Assembly: GCA_049296775.1 (NCBI GenBank)
Contig: JBAQTB010000003.1
Span: forward strand, 336,068 to 383,515
Length of the DNA: 47,448 nt
Direction: 5' to 3'
Source of the DNA: Patescibacteria group bacterium
GTDB taxonomy: Bacteria > Patescibacteriota > Patescibacteriia > UBA9934
Part shown: piece after piece, positions 8,091 to 18,325 of the stretch
Position numbering within the stretch: the stretch's first letter is position 1
Layout: each line of letters begins with the position of its first letter
Made by a program: the position numbers and the translations under genes
The notes under the pieces: generated by a model
What the model was told of the DNA's origin: nothing
The model's input: the letters and a program-made list of their open reading frames with translations, nothing else
The model's database searches: none

Positions 8091-8119
8091 TTGACAAACT
8101 GCTATTTTTTGGTTATTGT
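8091..8119 (+). promoter_or_regulatory. candidate promoter of the lipoprotein gene
   Basis: TTGACA (8091-8096) - 17 nt - TATTGT (8114-8119), divergent from the atp promoter. An 8-bp hairpin (tgcccatc/gatgggca, ~8149-8184) sits in the 5' UTR, and GGAGAG lies just before the ATG. Confidence 0.45.
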
Positions 8120-8206
8120 GCTACATTACCAGTGTGAGTTATCCATCTCTGCCCATCAACAGTTGGTGAGTACAGATGGGCAACCCGCCCAATTACAGGA
8201 GAGAGC

Positions 8207-8899
8207 ATGTTTATTCTACTGGTTCTCGGCGGCCTCATGGGCTGTGTCGATTACCATTTGCAAGAAGGTACGGATCCACTCGTGGATACTGGCCTCGATG
8301 AAACTGAACCCGTGGTGTCGACCGACACTAACTGCGAGTTCATCACAAATGAGGGCGAAACTTCGGCCATGCCGATCTTCAGCCTCATCGGCAGCGACGA
8401 TTTCGAACTCCAGGCCGGCAAGAGCCTGGTACTCGAAGTCGATGTTGTCAGCAGCGATAGCTGCGGTGACATCAAGCTCAGTTTGCTCGGGTTCACCGTT
8501 CTCGATCCCCGCCCGGGCAGTCGAGAATGGATGAACCGCATCAGCCAGCGCGGGATTCCCGCTGAGCTGGTAGATGCCTACGACTACTCGGCATTCCCGC
8601 CGACAGTCGCAAATGGTGTCGCTACCACCGCTGATGGCAACACGCTCCGTTACGTCTGGCACGATGGCCAGGCGGACTGGAGCCCAGCTCAACCCGCCGA
8701 CAACATGTCGCCGGAGCTGATCGAGGCCGACAGCGGCAAGACCTACGGCTTCGTGTGGCCCGCCACGGCCTACACGCCAGCCAAGACCATTCTCGAGGTT
8801 TCACTCTCTGAAGTCTGCTGGGAGGACATCGCCACTGGCGTGTCTGTCTGCACAGACCAGGGCCTCGACGTTACGGCCACGGTACGCATCATCAGATGA
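8207..8899 (+). CDS. hypothetical acidic protein with lipoprotein-type signal
   Basis: N-terminus MFILLVLGGLMGC (lipobox-like LMGC, but no basic n-region). It has its own promoter, a Shine-Dalgarno sequence and a terminator. It is much more GC-rich than the neighbouring genes. No recognisable domain. Confidence 0.6.
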   Translation: MFILLVLGGLMGCVDYHLQEGTDPLVDTGLDETEPVVSTDTNCEFITNEGETSAMPIFSLIGSDDFELQAGKSLVLEVDVVSSDSCGDIKLSLLGFTVLDPRPGSREWMNRISQRGIPAELVDAYDYSAFPPTVANGVATTADGNTLRYVWHDGQADWSPAQPADNMSPELIEADSGKTYGFVWPATAYTPAKTILEVSLSEVCWEDIATGVSVCTDQGLDVTATVRIIR

Positions 8900-8920
8900 T
8901 CCGTCCCGTGCCCCCACCTT

Positions 8921-8958
8921 CCGAGCAGTCGAACCCACGGTTCCTGCTCGGTTTTTTT
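8921..8958 (+). terminator. intrinsic terminator
   Basis: ccgagcag (8921-8928) pairs with ctgctcgg (8944-8951), followed by T7 (8952-8958). Confidence 0.7.
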
Positions 8959-8964
8959 ATATAA

Positions 8965-8996
8965 CGAAAAACATCGCTGTTATGCGATGTTTTTCG
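8965..8996. terminator. bidirectional intrinsic terminator (ends the tRNA transcript on the minus strand)
   Basis: Perfect 13-nt inverted repeat cgaaaaacatcgc/gcgatgtttttcg with a 6-nt loop, i.e. A5-stem-T5. On the minus strand it begins 1 nt after the CCA of tRNA-Thr. Confidence 0.65.
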
Positions 8997-8997
8997 A

Positions 8998-9073
8998 TGG
9001 AGCCACGGTCGGGGCTTGAACCCGAGACCTCATCCTTACCATGGATGCGCTCTACCAACTGAGCTACCGCGGC
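8998..9073 (-). tRNA. tRNA-Thr (anticodon GGU), CCA encoded
   Basis: Hand-folded cloverleaf: GCCGCGG TA GCTC AGTTGGTA GAGC G CATCC ATGGTAA GGATG AGGTC TCGGG TTCAAGC CCCGA CCGTGGC T CCA. It has a 7-bp acceptor stem (one G-U), U33 and A37. Confidence 0.9.
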
Positions 9074-9337
9074 GTATCGGCCTGTTTAAATCCTCCATCT
9101 TCGTCGTCGTTCGCTCCGTCGGACTCACCGTAGGATTTACCTACGCCTCGTCCTTACTCGCTCACTCCTAGAACCTGAAGGATTTAAACAGGCCTCTTTG
9201 TCAACCATTACCGTGAGGGTGAATGGTGCCTGTCCTCTGCGTAGGCGAAGGATCGGACTCGTTCGGGACATTCTCCTCCCTGCGTTGGGTCACGGTCAAT
9301 CACGGTGGAACACCATGAGCGAACGCAGTGAGTCGAA
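9074..9337 (-). other. 264-nt transcribed spacer between tRNA-Tyr and tRNA-Thr; candidate structured RNA of unknown class
   Basis: It lies inside a unit bounded by a promoter upstream of tRNA-Tyr and a terminator after tRNA-Thr. It is GC-rich, purine-rich on the transcribed strand, and has several long complementary segments (see findings). I could not fold any cloverleaf in it. Confidence 0.4.
9079..9194. repeat. 16-bp perfect inverted repeat flanking 84 nt
   Basis: ggcctgtttaaatcct (9079-9094) and aggatttaaacaggcc (9179-9194). An inner hairpin cgtagg/cctacg lies at 9129-9145. Confidence 0.9.
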
Positions 9338-9423
9338 TGGTGGGTCGAGAAGGGTTCGAACCTTCGTAGGCTTGCGCCAGCAGATTTACAGTCTGCCCCG
9401 TTTGACCGCTTCGGTATCGACCC
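9338..9423 (-). tRNA. tRNA-Tyr (anticodon GUA), class II long variable arm, CCA encoded
   Basis: Hand-folded cloverleaf: GGGTCGA TA CCG AAGCGGTCAAA CGG G GCAGA CTGTAAA TCTGC TGGCGCAAGCCTAC GAAGG TTCGAAC CCTTC TCGACCC A CCA. Confidence 0.9.
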
Positions 9424-9447
9424 GGGCTCACTAGCGTTGCGGGCTAT

Positions 9448-15725: not shown

Positions 15726-16625
15726 TTAAGGTAAGGCTAAAGCGATTCGTTCCAAGGCCAGCGCGACGTTACCATTAGCCTGCAAGGCTTGTCTGGCATC
15801 CAACAAACTCGAGAGTCCAGCCACCACCCGTGCGGGCACCACCGGTTCAGTATGTAACTTGAGGTGTAAAGCGTCGCATAGCTCCAGTAACCACTGTTGG
15901 CGACCATCTGCGCTCTTGGCGTCATCACCCTTCACTAGGGTAGCAATCGTCTTGATGCGCTCTGCTCGTGGTGCCGCGATGAATTGCTGAATGACTTCAT
16001 CCCGCTTGTGGGCCTCCATAAGCGTATCCGCGTCTGCTAACGCCAGCGCCACACCCGGCCGACCAACGGCTCGTCTAGCGGCTTCTTCTGCGATTTGAGG
16101 TGCGTAGCCACGTGCCGCCAAGCCGGCCGCAAGCTTAACGGTTGGCACACGTGACAAAGTAACCGGCACACTCCGCGACACAATCGTACGGAGCAAACGT
16201 GAACGATCTTCAGCTAACAAGAAGATTACGGCTTGTCCGGATGGTTCTTCTAAAGTTTTCAGTAACGCATTTTGCGCCTGAGTCGTCATGGTGTCGGCTT
16301 CATCAATGATCACGATCTTCCGACCTTGCACGGCAGAGAGCGCCAATCTGTCGCAAGCTGCCCGAATTAGCTCCAAAGGAATCTGTTTCTTTTTATCACC
16401 AGTTTTATCATCTAACGGCCGCTCAACGTACACCACATCCGGGTGCATCCGTAAGCGTTTGAGTTCAGTAGACAAGAGCGCTCCAGCCAAACGTTCAGCT
16501 ACCGCCATTTTGCCCACCCCTTGCGGACCCAAGAATACATAAGCATGAGCAGCACTATCTTGAGCTAAAACACGTTCAAAATAGGCTACTTGCTGAGTGT
16601 GACCAATAATGTCAGCAAAAGTCAT
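15726..16625 (-). CDS. holB: DNA polymerase III delta' subunit
   Basis: FADIIGHTQQV...AHAYVFLGPQGVGK, IIDEADTMT and SRS/SRV motifs of clamp-loader AAA+ proteins. The ATG at 16625 is preferred to the track's GTG at 16646. Confidence 0.8.
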   Translation of the reverse strand: MTFADIIGHTQQVAYFERVLAQDSAAHAYVFLGPQGVGKMAVAERLAGALLSTELKRLRMHPDVVYVERPLDDKTGDKKKQIPLELIRAACDRLALSAVQGRKIVIIDEADTMTTQAQNALLKTLEEPSGQAVIFLLAEDRSRLLRTIVSRSVPVTLSRVPTVKLAAGLAARGYAPQIAEEAARRAVGRPGVALALADADTLMEAHKRDEVIQQFIAAPRAERIKTIATLVKGDDAKSADGRQQWLLELCDALHLKLHTEPVVPARVVAGLSSLLDARQALQANGNVALALERIALALP

Positions 16626-16765
16626 AGTCAGAGCAAAGTATAACACGTTAACGTAATCAGAATAGACCCCTCAACCGGATAAAGTCGTCAGAAATCTAGC
16701 AGTAAACCAGGCTCAGCTAATAGAATTATATTGGCTAATTTTAGCTATAAACTAGCCGTTTATAC

Positions 16766-16794
16766 TTGACAAAAGACGATTTTTCTGCTAGACT
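16766..16794 (+). promoter_or_regulatory. candidate orphan promoter
   Basis: TTGACA (16766-16771) - 17 nt - TAGACT (16789-16794), facing a ~300-nt non-coding stretch. Confidence 0.5.
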
Positions 16795-16799
16795 GCCCG

Positions 16800-17101
16800 G
16801 TTGCTTAAAAACTATTGCTCCCAGAACTTCGGGGAGGAGAGATGGTCGGACGGGGGTGGCAACACCACCCCCCCGATCGGTGTGGAGGTACCGGACTTGG
16901 CTCCGGCTGACTCTTGGCACCGCACCGCATCACGATTCACATCAACTTCGGCTGATCACTGAGTCCCTTCTTTCCGAAGTTGTGTGAGGAATAGCTTGTG
17001 GGTAACAATCTGAGTTTGCAGTTGGTTCAATAATCGATTACTTTAGACACCCCTGAACCTCAGATTGTTACCCATAACCCCCCACACCCCAGGGAGATGC
17101 C
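16800..17101 (+). ncRNA. candidate structured 5' leader or ncRNA, class unknown
   Basis: At least four strong hairpins. (1) gggggtgg/ccaccccc at 16852-16872, extendable by tcgg/ccga flanks. (2) ccgga/tccgg at ~16891-16906. (3) A 13-bp stem with one bulge at 16938-16951 / 16974-16986. (4) A 16-bp perfect stem at 16999-17014 / 17059-17074. No convincing ORF. Confidence 0.35.
16999..17074. repeat. 16-bp perfect inverted repeat with a 44-nt loop
   Basis: tgggtaacaatctgag (16999-17014) and ctcagattgttaccca (17059-17074), 27 nt upstream of the ORF at 17102. Confidence 0.9.
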
Positions 17102-17332
17102 ATGCTCGATGCGGTACGTAAAGACAAGCTAACTTTGTTTGAAGTAGATTACGAACCGTACTCGGTCACATATATCCCGACCGACCGAGACCGAAGTCGC
17201 TCGAGTTCGAAGCGGCTCAAGTACATCGAGGAGAGGATTTACTACCGTCGGTACGGTCAGTATTATGTGGACGGCAAGAAAGATCGGCGAATGACGCAAA
17301 CGCGGAGGCTGAAGGATGCTTTCCGCCGCTGA
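17102..17332 (+). CDS. hypothetical small basic protein (76 aa)
   Basis: AGGGAG lies 7 nt upstream of the ATG. Arg/Lys/Tyr-rich (…RDRSRSSSKRLKYIEERIYYRRYGQYYVDGKKDRRMTQTRRLKDAFRR). No recognisable family. Confidence 0.4.
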   Translation: MLDAVRKDKLTLFEVDYEPYSVTYIPTDRDRSRSSSKRLKYIEERIYYRRYGQYYVDGKKDRRMTQTRRLKDAFRR

Positions 17333-17495
17333 GCAACTAGAGGTCGACCTGAACGGCCTCAGCCCAGAAGATCGCGAGATCGTCTTGATGACGACCCTGC
17401 GGTCATCGTTCATCGTCGATGGCACCAAGCCCGACGACCTCGTGCCTACGTCCGACTGGGACGCGATCACCACCCGGTCAGAGTTTGGCATCTAG
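17316..17495 (+). CDS. hypothetical small acidic protein (59 aa)
   Basis: Not in the ORF track. The ATG overlaps the last 17 nt of the previous ORF, and GGAGG lies 8 nt upstream. Translation: MLSAAEQLEVDLNGLSPEDREIVLMTTLRSSFIVDGTKPDDLVPTSDWDAITTRSEFGI. Confidence 0.4.
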   Translation: MLSAAEQLEVDLNGLSPEDREIVLMTTLRSSFIVDGTKPDDLVPTSDWDAITTRSEFGI

Positions 17496-17518
17496 GCCGA
17501 CTCTGAAGACACCCACAG

Positions 17519-17553
17519 CCTGCCCCGCCCTCGTGCGTCGGCAGGTTTTTTTT
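17519..17553 (+). terminator. intrinsic terminator
   Basis: cctgcc (17519-17524) pairs with ggcagg (17540-17545), followed by T8. It abuts the stop of the convergent TrmB-like gene. Confidence 0.55.
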
Positions 17554-18325
17554 ATTTAACGGCTAATTGACGTTCAATATCCCCCGCCTGCCGCCACGCT
17601 AATTCCAAAGTCGCCCGGCAAGTATCAGCGATGGTAGGTGAAATGATCTCAATCGCCGTGACGTTCAGCGTGTACGCAAACATGAGGACATGATCAGCGC
17701 ACACCGTCATCTCCCCCTTGACGTCTAACATAGCCGCAGGGATGCATCTTACCTCAAAATCAGCTCCAGCCGGAGCATCAACTTTAGTATCTGTCACCAA
17801 AATGGCTCGTCCCTTGGATTTCTTAGACTGTAATCTAGCACCACGTTCTTGTACTAGAGAATGTTTATGCAATTCAAGAAAAGCATCATAGCCCACCATC
17901 TGCAAAATGGGTTGATCTAAATTAGCGTAAGCACTATGCAACTCACGTAATTCTTCCACATCATTAATAATCCTAAACTGTGGCCGCACCACACCGTCAG
18001 CCGCCAAAGCTTCCAACTGAGGCAAAAAATTCAAGGCACGCTGGCGTCTAGCTTGCGCTTCCTCAAGTTGCAAAGTCAACAAGAGATTGAGGCGATCAGG
18101 CGGCTCAGTAATGTACACCTGTTGACCGGACTCTGAAGCACCCTTAACCAAACCTTGAGTAATGAGTTGTTGCAACGTGTCATAGCAAGTAGCTCTAGGC
18201 AAACCAGAAGCTAAAGCCAACTGCTGCACGCCACTTTTAGAAAACCGTAACAAAGTCACGTACACGCAGGCCTGACGCTCAGAAAATCCCAAGGCCTCAA
18301 GTTCGCGCTGCAAATCCGTCTGCAT
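17552..18325 (-). CDS. TrmB-family transcriptional regulator
   Basis: N-terminal wHTH LEALGFSERQACVYVTLLRFSKSGVQQLALASGLPRATCYDTLQQLITQGLV is the TrmB N-terminal pattern. Confidence 0.65.
   Translation of the reverse strand: MQTDLQRELEALGFSERQACVYVTLLRFSKSGVQQLALASGLPRATCYDTLQQLITQGLVKGASESGQQVYITEPPDRLNLLLTLQLEEAQARRQRALNFLPQLEALAADGVVRPQFRIINDVEELRELHSAYANLDQPILQMVGYDAFLELHKHSLVQERGARLQSKKSKGRAILVTDTKVDAPAGADFEVRCIPAAMLDVKGEMTVCADHVLMFAYTLNVTAIEIISPTIADTCRATLELAWRQAGDIERQLAVK

Follow-up and report, generated by a model that had tools for sequence, protein, structure and literature searches.

Patescibacteria (Candidate Phyla Radiation, CPR) have tiny genomes with very few characterized noncoding RNAs. 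In other systems, RNase III processing hairpins are found between stable RNA and mRNA, as at the early-region sites of phage T7 and in the stems of rRNA precursors. CPR genomes are reported to harbor RNase P RNAs so diverged that they score below Rfam thresholds; in 10 of 35 circular CPR genomes, standard thresholds detected no RNase P RNA (PMC8172020). Here we describe a locus in a 47,448-nucleotide (nt) stretch of a Patescibacteria group bacterium (assembly GCA_049296775.1, contig JBAQTB010000003.1, positions 336,068 to 383,515 of the forward strand; "the window" refers to this whole stretch). The locus is a plus-strand islet at positions 16766 to 17553, lying between holB and a gene for a TrmB-family regulator, and an initial annotation had described it as a self-contained, GC-rich, horizontally acquired two-gene module with its own promoter and leader. 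From a comparison with related genomes we consider it rather likely that the locus is instead a composite, in which a conserved RNA gene is followed by an accessory segment (16992 to 17553) occupying a variable slot. The RNA, for which covariation support is unusually strong, is a candidate new family of structured RNAs in Patescibacteria, and we found no description of it in the literature.

A conserved structured RNA between holB and a TrmB-like gene

The locus was compared among 11 distinct genomes, including that of the window. One close relative (L021) was found by a metagenome scan, and the other nine (L022, L023, L024, L025, L027, L028, L029, L031, and L032) through their HolB homologues, the encoding contigs of which were fetched; one intergenic region from each genome was compared, in the orientation of the islet. 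The gene order MreB, GT4, TrmB-like, intergenic region, HolB, BNR protein, and RRF is the same in all 11 genomes, and the housekeeping proteins are 41 to 78% identical in pairwise comparisons, with the exception of L021 and L029 (98%).

In every genome the intergenic region contains an RNA gene, consisting of a promoter and the following ~195 nt (about 16800 to 16995 in the window), with a conserved core of ~170 nt. The TTGACA -35 hexamer, the 17-nt spacer, and the extended -10 element (TGCTAnnnT) are retained in all 11 genomes. A scan of the window found two promoter-like sites where 2.4 are expected, so that a single match is within chance, and we take this promoter as real because it is conserved in all 11 genomes; transcription is predicted to start near 16799 to 16801. 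In the relatives, ATATTAGCYnTAAAnTAGC-like blocks precede TTGACA at positions equivalent to an A/T-rich element of the window (Table 1), a possible UP element or operator (regulator-binding site), perhaps for the adjoining TrmB-like regulator.

In the consensus fold, the core forms a tight four-way junction, in which the two ends of the RNA pair in a closing helix of ~30 bp (P1 and its extension P0) that encloses three hairpin arms (H1 to H3; Table 1), with only about 7 unpaired nucleotides at the junction; the junction nucleotides are invariant. Region 16795 to 17105 folds with z = -5.5 relative to shuffled sequence, with none of 100 shuffles folding as well. Compensatory double-sided changes occur at 29 of the 64 consensus pairs, and 94.5% of pair cells are paired, compared with 35 to 52% in controls in which the partners were slid by 1 to 3 columns; none of 500 column shuffles reached any of the five measures used. 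A covariance model of the core (R1) scores 182 bits in the window (16819 to 16986, plus strand only), finds one copy per locus, scores no more than 15 bits on the opposite strand of the loci, and has no match in 17 loci from unrelated bacteria. The core is 89 to 94% identical between the window and its close relatives, whereas the holB DNA of the same relatives is 63 to 65% identical.

Two genomes, L025 and L028, have the RNA with no open reading frame (ORF) behind it, and their intergenic regions are just 322 to 326 nt, comprising the promoter, the RNA, and a terminator. In L025, the core is 90% identical to that of the window, and the closing helix is directly followed by the U-tract UUGUUUUA and then by the stop codon of the convergent TrmB-like gene. 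In L028, the structure is retained through compensatory changes, and a small hairpin plus U4 lies between the closing helix and the stop codon of the TrmB-like gene. A U-tract after the closing helix is thus present in both ORF-less loci, and it is absent in every ORF-bearing locus. Because the RNA is at the same locus in all genomes examined, it is apparently vertically inherited, and because it is found without the ORFs and is conserved beyond the neighboring protein genes, it is not a leader that evolved for these ORFs. We conclude that the core RNA gene is ancestral in this Patescibacteria lineage, is present in a single copy, and always lies antisense between the TrmB-like gene and holB.

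Several further sequence features were noted within the core. A 22-codon frame that begins at a Shine-Dalgarno (SD)-like GGAGG-N6-AUG within P1 is frameshifted in L031 and different in L032, and therefore the constraint is on the RNA rather than on a peptide. We note that the purine tract GGRGGAGAGAG-AUGG on the 5' strand of P1 (16831 to 16845) is near-invariant in all relatives and resembles an SD followed by a start codon. In the 3' part of the core (16954 to 16977), GAUCAC is followed by the pyrimidine tract CCCUUCUUUCC (AUCACCUCC in L031), a combination reminiscent of the 3' end of 16S rRNA that may be coincidence or a hint of a ribosome link. The apical hairpins of H2 and H3 (16901 to 16910 and 16946 to 16955) both carry YYCGGCUGA, a UNCG-type tetraloop followed by CUGA, and the repeat could provide paired binding sites for one protein.

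The slot downstream of the RNA varies among relatives

The content of the slot behind the RNA differs from genome to genome. It is empty in L025 and L028. The window and L024 have a hairpin (H) followed by ORF1 and ORF2; L022 has the same three elements preceded by a ~115-nt element (module X); L023 has H and an ORF2-type gene only; and L027 has module X, H, and an unrelated acidic ORF. In L021 there is only a homologue of ORF1, which in L029 has been inactivated by an internal deletion. L031 has a remnant of H, a 288-amino-acid (aa) orphan, and a DUF559 gene inserted behind the terminator, and L032 has a 159-aa membrane-like orphan. All slot ORFs are co-oriented with the RNA and SD-preceded, with no U-tract between the RNA and the ORF. 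The slot states are scattered on a tree of three concatenated flanking proteins, which argues for several losses or replacements.

Slot ORFs also differ in composition from host genes. Their GC content at third codon positions (GC3) is 0.62 to 0.94, compared with 0.40 to 0.61 for host genes, and that at second positions (GC2) is 0.36 to 0.47; C at third positions is 0.28 to 0.59 (0.41 to 0.59 with the exception of ORF1 of the window) compared with 0.19 to 0.22 for host genes. By codon position (1/2/3), GC is 0.52/0.40/0.62 for ORF1 and 0.58/0.42/0.80 for ORF2, and in the slot ORFs of the relatives it reaches 0.69/0.44/0.94 (L022) and 0.65/0.45/0.90 (L031). We infer that GC-rich donors supplied the slot genes, which entered at a convergent gene junction tolerant of insertions. 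The initial annotation had looked to the presence or absence of the islet at what it called the holB/trmB junction in related genomes as informative, and this proved apt, with the RNA in 11 of 11 genomes and the ORF part variable. Its proposal of a horizontally acquired two-gene module suits the ORFs, which are accessory and foreign in GC3, and does not extend to the promoter and the RNA; nor is the unit self-contained with a leader of its own, given that the RNA occurs without the ORFs in L025 and L028.

Module X looks like a MITE-like (miniature inverted-repeat transposable element) mobile element family of this lineage. In L022 and L027 it lies as an insertion between the core RNA and H; a homologous third copy of 116 nt lies elsewhere in the window (9079 to 9194), between tRNA-Thr and tRNA-Tyr genes, with 24-nt terminal inverted repeats that are 88% complementary. 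The copies share the core CGTAGG..ACCTACGCCTCG, and the ends are TAAA(T/A)TTT.

A different reading of this arrangement is that the core RNA acts in cis, as a 5' element (a riboswitch or attenuator, a self-processing ribozyme, or a 5' stabilizer) for whichever gene fills the slot, and is a relic where the slot is empty. In favor of this reading, 9 of the 11 genomes have an SD-preceded ORF in the same orientation behind the RNA without an intervening terminator, the closing helix and U-tract of L025 resemble a terminator that could be switched by helix formation, and the invariant junction nucleotides would suit such a role. We nonetheless consider a cis-acting element unlikely: the RNA is still intact in L025 and L028, which lack ORFs, where a relic would decay, and their RNA runs directly into a terminator and the convergent TrmB-like gene, an arrangement that does not fit a riboswitch or other cis-regulatory leader; moreover, the slot genes are mutually unrelated, unlike the functionally coherent regulons of riboswitches, and no known riboswitch or ribozyme family matches.

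Table 1. Features of the islet and its immediate flanks (positions are those of the window)
Feature	Position	Strand	Description
holB	15726-16646	-	Flanking gene
A/T-rich element	16731-16757	+	TTGGCTAATTTTAGCTATAAACTAGCC; upstream of -35, in region shared with divergent holB promoter
Promoter, sigma-70 type	16766-16794	+	TTGACA, 17-nt spacer, TG-n-TAGACT (extended -10); 10 of 12 consensus matches
Core noncoding RNA	16812-16995	+	Tight four-way junction; consensus fold, covariation, covariance model R1
P0	To about 16812 and 16995	+	Extension of closing helix; consensus fold
P1	16822-16839 with 16967-16984	+	Closing helix; consensus fold
H1	16844-16878	+	14-bp arm; consensus fold
H2	16879-16931	+	Arm with UCCG loop; consensus fold
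H3	16934-16965	+	11-bp arm with UUCG loop; consensus fold
Hairpin H	16992-17085	+	~20-bp stem, conserved loop CAGUUGGUUCAAUAAUCGAUUA...CCCCUG
Palindrome in loop of H	17031-17040	+	TAATCGATTA; 10 nt, perfect
Spacer	17078-17101	+	AACCCCCCACACCCC, C-rich and G-poor, then SD GGGAG (17092-17096); read directly
ORF1	17102-17332	+	76 aa, basic, pI 10.0; SD GGGAG upstream
ORF2	17316-17495	+	59 aa, acidic, pI 4.1; SD GGAGG at 17304-17308; overlaps ORF1 by 17 nt
Intrinsic terminator	17519-17553	+	Stem CCUGCC..GGCAGG, inner CGC/GCG, then U8
TrmB-like gene	17552-18325	-	Flanking gene

Hairpin H is an RNA-level element

Hairpin H is found in five genomes (the window, L022, L023, L024, and L027), with a remnant in L031. 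Its arms in the window (16996 to 17017 with 17056 to 17077) are 91% complementary, and double-sided changes occur at 9 of 27 pairs among only five sequences. Near-invariant parts are the ends GUUG and CAAC, the inner segments CAAUCUGAG and CUCAGAUUG, and the loop. H is present in a single copy in the window, where a covariance model of it (R2) scores 93 bits on the plus strand compared with 43 bits on the minus strand, and several of the G-U pairs would become C-A mismatches on the opposite strand. The covariation and the strand asymmetry together indicate that H is an RNA-level element. From its position and geometry, it is most plausibly a double-strand-specific (RNase III-type) processing or stabilizing site between the stable RNA and an mRNA. 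Given its 22-nt invariant loop with the palindrome UAAUCGAUUA, H may also engage a sequence-specific partner or pair with another loop.

Two DNA-level explanations for H were rejected. An attC (integron) site would have the core sites RYYYAAC and GTTRRRY at the hairpin base and an intI integrase close by; in H the stem ends are GUUG and CAAC, the inner GGGTAAC/GTTACCC is not kept in relatives (GGGCAGC/GGTGCCT in L022, for example), and there is no integrase among the annotated genes of the loci. A MITE would occur as several dispersed copies whose terminal inverted repeats are conserved in sequence, a pattern that module X does show; H, in contrast, is found once in each locus, has a covarying mid-stem, and scores twice as high on the plus strand as on the minus strand. 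Behind H is a C-rich spacer leading to an SD (Table 1), and comparable AACCC-rich spacers followed by an SD are present in L022, L023, L024, L031, and L032.

A similar spacer occurs elsewhere in the window, in a second plus-strand, GC3-rich unit among minus-strand genes (8092 to 8960), beside two tRNA genes. This unit has a TTGACA promoter-like site, a 5' untranslated region (UTR) with the hairpin GCCCATC..GATGGGC, the spacer AACCCGCCC resembling that after H, an SD, and a terminator of a stem plus T7. Its ORF (8207 to 8899) encodes a 230-aa lipoprotein-like product with a GC3 of 0.71 and no Pfam match. The 5' UTR (8150 to 8206) was considered as a relative of H and its spacer and set aside, because its hairpin goes undetected by model R2.

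ORF1, ORF2, and the terminator

A profile of the L021, L022, and L024 proteins matches only the ORF1 frame of the window among 745 six-frame segments (E = 7e-9), and the pairwise match of ORF1 with the L021 ORF has E = 2e-6. A motif, E-V-D/E..Y..T/P-x-R-D..S......R-R-x-G, is kept while the DNA diverges. By these comparisons ORF1 belongs to a real, small, fast-evolving gene family, seen in four genomes. ORF2 occupies the position of the acidic ORF2 of L022 and L024 and shares their charge; the similarity is not significant (E = 13), no gene with its product is on record, and we treat it as an orphan. The overlap of ORF1 and ORF2 is 17 nt in the window, 4 nt in L024, and 1 nt in L022. The second plus-strand promoter-like site (17238 to 17266; 9 of 12 matches) lies within ORF1 and upstream of ORF2; ahead of ORF1, the scan detected no other strong promoter.

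The slot proteins have no match in Pfam, PHROGs, PADLOC, NCBIfam, PDB sequences, phage genomes, or plasmids; the initial annotation, too, had recognized neither peptide. Searches of slot proteins against phages and plasmids (tblastn) and of the islet against phages (blastn) gave no match, and four DNA patterns drawn from the core RNA and H have none in viral contigs. A word-indexed protein search with ORF1 returned nothing, and the two matches from an exhaustive phmmer search with ORF1 are artefacts in which ~4 bits per repeat are summed over immunoglobulin-like repeats. A concatenated six-frame pseudo-translation of the RNA, used as a query for miscalled ORFs, also found nothing. Seven gene-called slot proteins were looked up, and each is a singleton in its 90% cluster.

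Public gene calls are misleading in this region. In the window, a 120-aa antisense frame (17129 to 17491, minus strand) is called in place of ORF1 and ORF2, and in L031 a 311-aa call (8474 to 9427) overlaps the 3' end of the RNA, with the opposite 288-aa frame having the SD AAGGAGG. Both calls are shadow ORFs; in at least two assemblies, gene callers picked the wrong strand of this GC-rich segment. The terminator was missed by the scan tool because its loop exceeds 8 nt, and its U-tract runs into the stop codon of the TrmB-like gene, which is convergent. A related GACCYRCC..GGYRGGUC hairpin closes the unit in L021, L022, L023, L024, L027, and L031, with a clear U-run in L021 and L031.

It could be argued that the ORFs are not functional at all, and that 16800 to 17553 is one long noncoding transcript, or the decaying remnant of an integrated element, in which the frames are incidental. 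GC-rich sequence opens frames on both strands, as the choice of an antisense frame by the gene caller illustrates; single-sequence AlphaFold2 models of ORF1 and ORF2 are of low confidence (predicted local distance difference test scores of 59 and 49); homologues were found in four genomes only; the L029 copy carries a deletion; and the ratio of nonsynonymous to synonymous substitution rates (dN/dS) is noisy, with several values close to 1. Set against this are the codon-phase asymmetry (GC3 up to 0.94 compared with GC2 of 0.36 to 0.47), the properly spaced SDs before every ORF, the retention of the ORF1 amino acid motif despite DNA divergence, and a dN/dS of ~0.4 for the best-aligned pairs. 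In addition, folding of the coding part is modest relative to shuffles (z = -2.6 only), and its long-range 5'-3' pairing, a 12/13-bp match of the ORF1 start with the ORF2 end, is not conserved in relatives. On balance, we regard incidental frames as quite unlikely.

Genomic setting

The features listed in the initial annotation (promoter, hairpins, ORFs, SDs, the 17-nt overlap, and terminator) are all present in the sequence. Its description of the islet as the only plus-strand unit between minus-strand genes also stands, as it is the sole one between ~9.7 and 27.1 kb; the neighbor it took for the tRNA methyltransferase TrmB is, however, a TrmB-family helix-turn-helix transcription regulator (PF01978). 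The GC excess is real yet modest: GC is 55% for 16801 to 17551 compared with a window mean of 48.6%, which is in the top 3.5% of 750-nt windows and not the maximum. Of the three 60-nt lines counted by hand, those given as 60% and 35% GC are exact, and that given as 67% is 65% upon recounting. In one relative only, L027, a gene with a 23S_rRNA_IVP domain (PF05635; 6133 to 6504) lies between RRF and a tRNA synthetase gene; proteins of this kind are usually encoded within intervening sequences of 23S rRNA.

The core RNA does not match a known family

Nothing in the islet matches Rfam 15 at the gathering threshold, and the only such matches in the window are two tRNA genes. Relaxing the cutoff to E ≤ 10 brought up only noise, whether the query was the window region, the 206-nt core by itself (for which matches as weak as 4.7 bits were listed), or either of the two most divergent homologues. 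The initial annotation had named a conserved noncoding RNA of a known Rfam family as evidence against its reading, and half of this applies: the region is a conserved noncoding RNA, and it matches no known Rfam family.

Individual candidates were also considered. The segments GAGGUACCGGAC and AUCAACUUCGGCUGAUC may, by eye, bear a faint likeness to the conserved regions CR-I and CR-V of RNase P RNA. No RNase P model matches the 206 nt at E ≤ 10 among matches listed down to 4.7 bits, and the supported fold pairs both of these segments locally, leaving no P4 pseudoknot. For 6S RNA, a closing stem and a terminal arm are present, yet RF00013 does not match, both strands of the would-be bubble are fully paired hairpins (H1 and H3) with compensatory changes, and the ~7 unpaired junction nucleotides exclude an open bubble. 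Neither ARAGORN nor Rfam finds a transfer-messenger RNA (tmRNA) in the window, where ARAGORN reports two tRNAs. A retron msr-msd is not indicated, there being no reverse transcriptase among the annotated genes of the fetched loci, whose neighbors are HolB, TrmB-like, GT4, and MreB.

These results bear on whether the core is a highly diverged 6S RNA, a reduced RNase P RNA, or a signal recognition particle (SRP) RNA that Rfam models miss. Such an origin would account for the strong conserved promoter, the single copy, the apparently vertical inheritance, and the terminal helix formed by both ends; ~190 nt approximates the size of 6S RNA; and there is the precedent of RNase P RNA missed in 10 of 35 circular CPR genomes (PMC8172020). 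It is, however, very unlikely, because there are no RNase P, 6S, SRP, or tmRNA matches among those listed down to 4.7 bits, the ~7 unpaired junction nucleotides leave no space for a 6S bubble or a P4 pseudoknot, and ~170 nt is far smaller than any known RNase P RNA.

Equally poor are the prospects of the toxin-antitoxin or anti-defense pair to which the initial annotation had likened ORF1 and ORF2, with the whole of 16766 to 17553 as one acquired module with its own promoter and long regulatory leader: the pair is small, basic plus acidic, and overlapping, in L022 and L024 as well as in the window, its GC3 is atypical, and the ORFs are present or absent among relatives, but the promoter and supposed leader occur without ORFs (L025 and L028) or with unrelated ORFs (L027, L031, and L032), the leader is better conserved than housekeeping genes, the partners do not co-occur consistently (ORF1 without ORF2 in L021, an ORF2-type gene without ORF1 in L023), ORF2 of the window is not homologous to the other ORF2 genes, and homology searches with nine slot proteins gave no match to toxin-antitoxin, defense, or anti-defense families. 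Nothing about the slot ORF pair points to a toxin-antitoxin module.

A proposed mode of expression and its implications

For the composite locus that we favor, a plausible scheme is that the conserved extended -10 promoter drives the ~195-nt RNA, which would be stable, abundant, and trans-acting, probably as a ribonucleoprotein scaffold. In this genome, because no U-tract follows the closing helix, polymerase would read on past it through H, the C-rich spacer, ORF1, and ORF2, and would stop at the terminator, such that ORF1 and ORF2 would be expressed from a 3'-extended form of that transcript. ORF1 would be translated from its own SD, and ORF2 from its own SD with translational coupling at the overlap. 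Processing at H could separate the stable RNA from the mRNA, or H could protect the 5' end of the mRNA.

Some considerations weigh against this interpretation. There are only 10 distinct RNA sequences, which come from a single clade and share one genomic setting. All slot genes have high GC3, even where they sit on deep branches, and a single ancient acquisition would not easily account for this; repeated capture is assumed, with no donor homologue found in our searches. The loop of H is invariant, which a simple RNase III site does not explain. Where transcription starts, whether it reads through, how H is processed, and how stable the RNA is are predictions, and the proposal of a stable trans-acting RNA is made by analogy, from the strong promoter, the terminal helix, and conservation above that of proteins.

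A more ambitious version is that the RNA, H, and the terminal hairpin constitute a capture-and-expression platform, in which foreign GC-rich genes are repeatedly inserted between H and the terminator and expressed from a housekeeping RNA promoter, the RNA itself being a new ribonucleoprotein RNA of Patescibacteria. We regard this as doubtful; if true, the genes would possibly come from a GC-rich host or its mobile elements, and the platform would be integron-like in function and anchored to an RNA gene, with no recognizable integrase. Independently of this, an RNA that is still ~90% identical among genomes whose proteins are down to ~70% suggests an important cellular partner, and the covariance model built here is directly usable for mapping its distribution. 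A slot filled in each lineage by different GC3-rich orphans also offers a compact natural case of gene acquisition and expression in streamlined genomes.

Comparison with known systems

Like type II toxin-antitoxin pairs, ORF1 and ORF2 are small, overlapping, co-directional, and of opposite charge; unlike them, they have no family similarity and the partners are not inherited together. Hairpin H is similar to RNase III processing hairpins in being ~20 bp, near-perfect, covarying, and placed exactly between a structured RNA and a coding segment. It differs from known RNase III sites in that its cleavage is only predicted and in its 22-nt invariant palindromic loop.

The core RNA resembles the genes for 6S RNA (ssrS), SRP RNA (ffs), and RNase P RNA (rnpB) in being single-copy with its own strong promoter, in having ends that pair in a long terminal helix, in its fixed locus and apparently vertical inheritance, and in a sequence better conserved than the neighboring protein genes. 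It matches none of these families, however, and its compact four-way junction with three fully paired arms is unlike the 6S rod with its open bubble, the SRP domain IV hairpin, or the RNase P core with its P4 pseudoknot. The arrangement as a whole is reminiscent of the insertion hot spots at tRNA, tmRNA, and small RNA genes, in that a conserved RNA gene directly precedes a segment that differs among close relatives and has a foreign composition, and in that independent insertions have occurred in the slot (the MITE-like element in L022 and L027, and the DUF559 gene in L031). In contrast to those hot spots, there is no integrase, and there are no att-type direct repeats of the RNA 3' end beyond chance; the cargo is just 0.3 to 0.9 kb and always co-oriented with the RNA, and it seems to depend on read-through from the RNA promoter.

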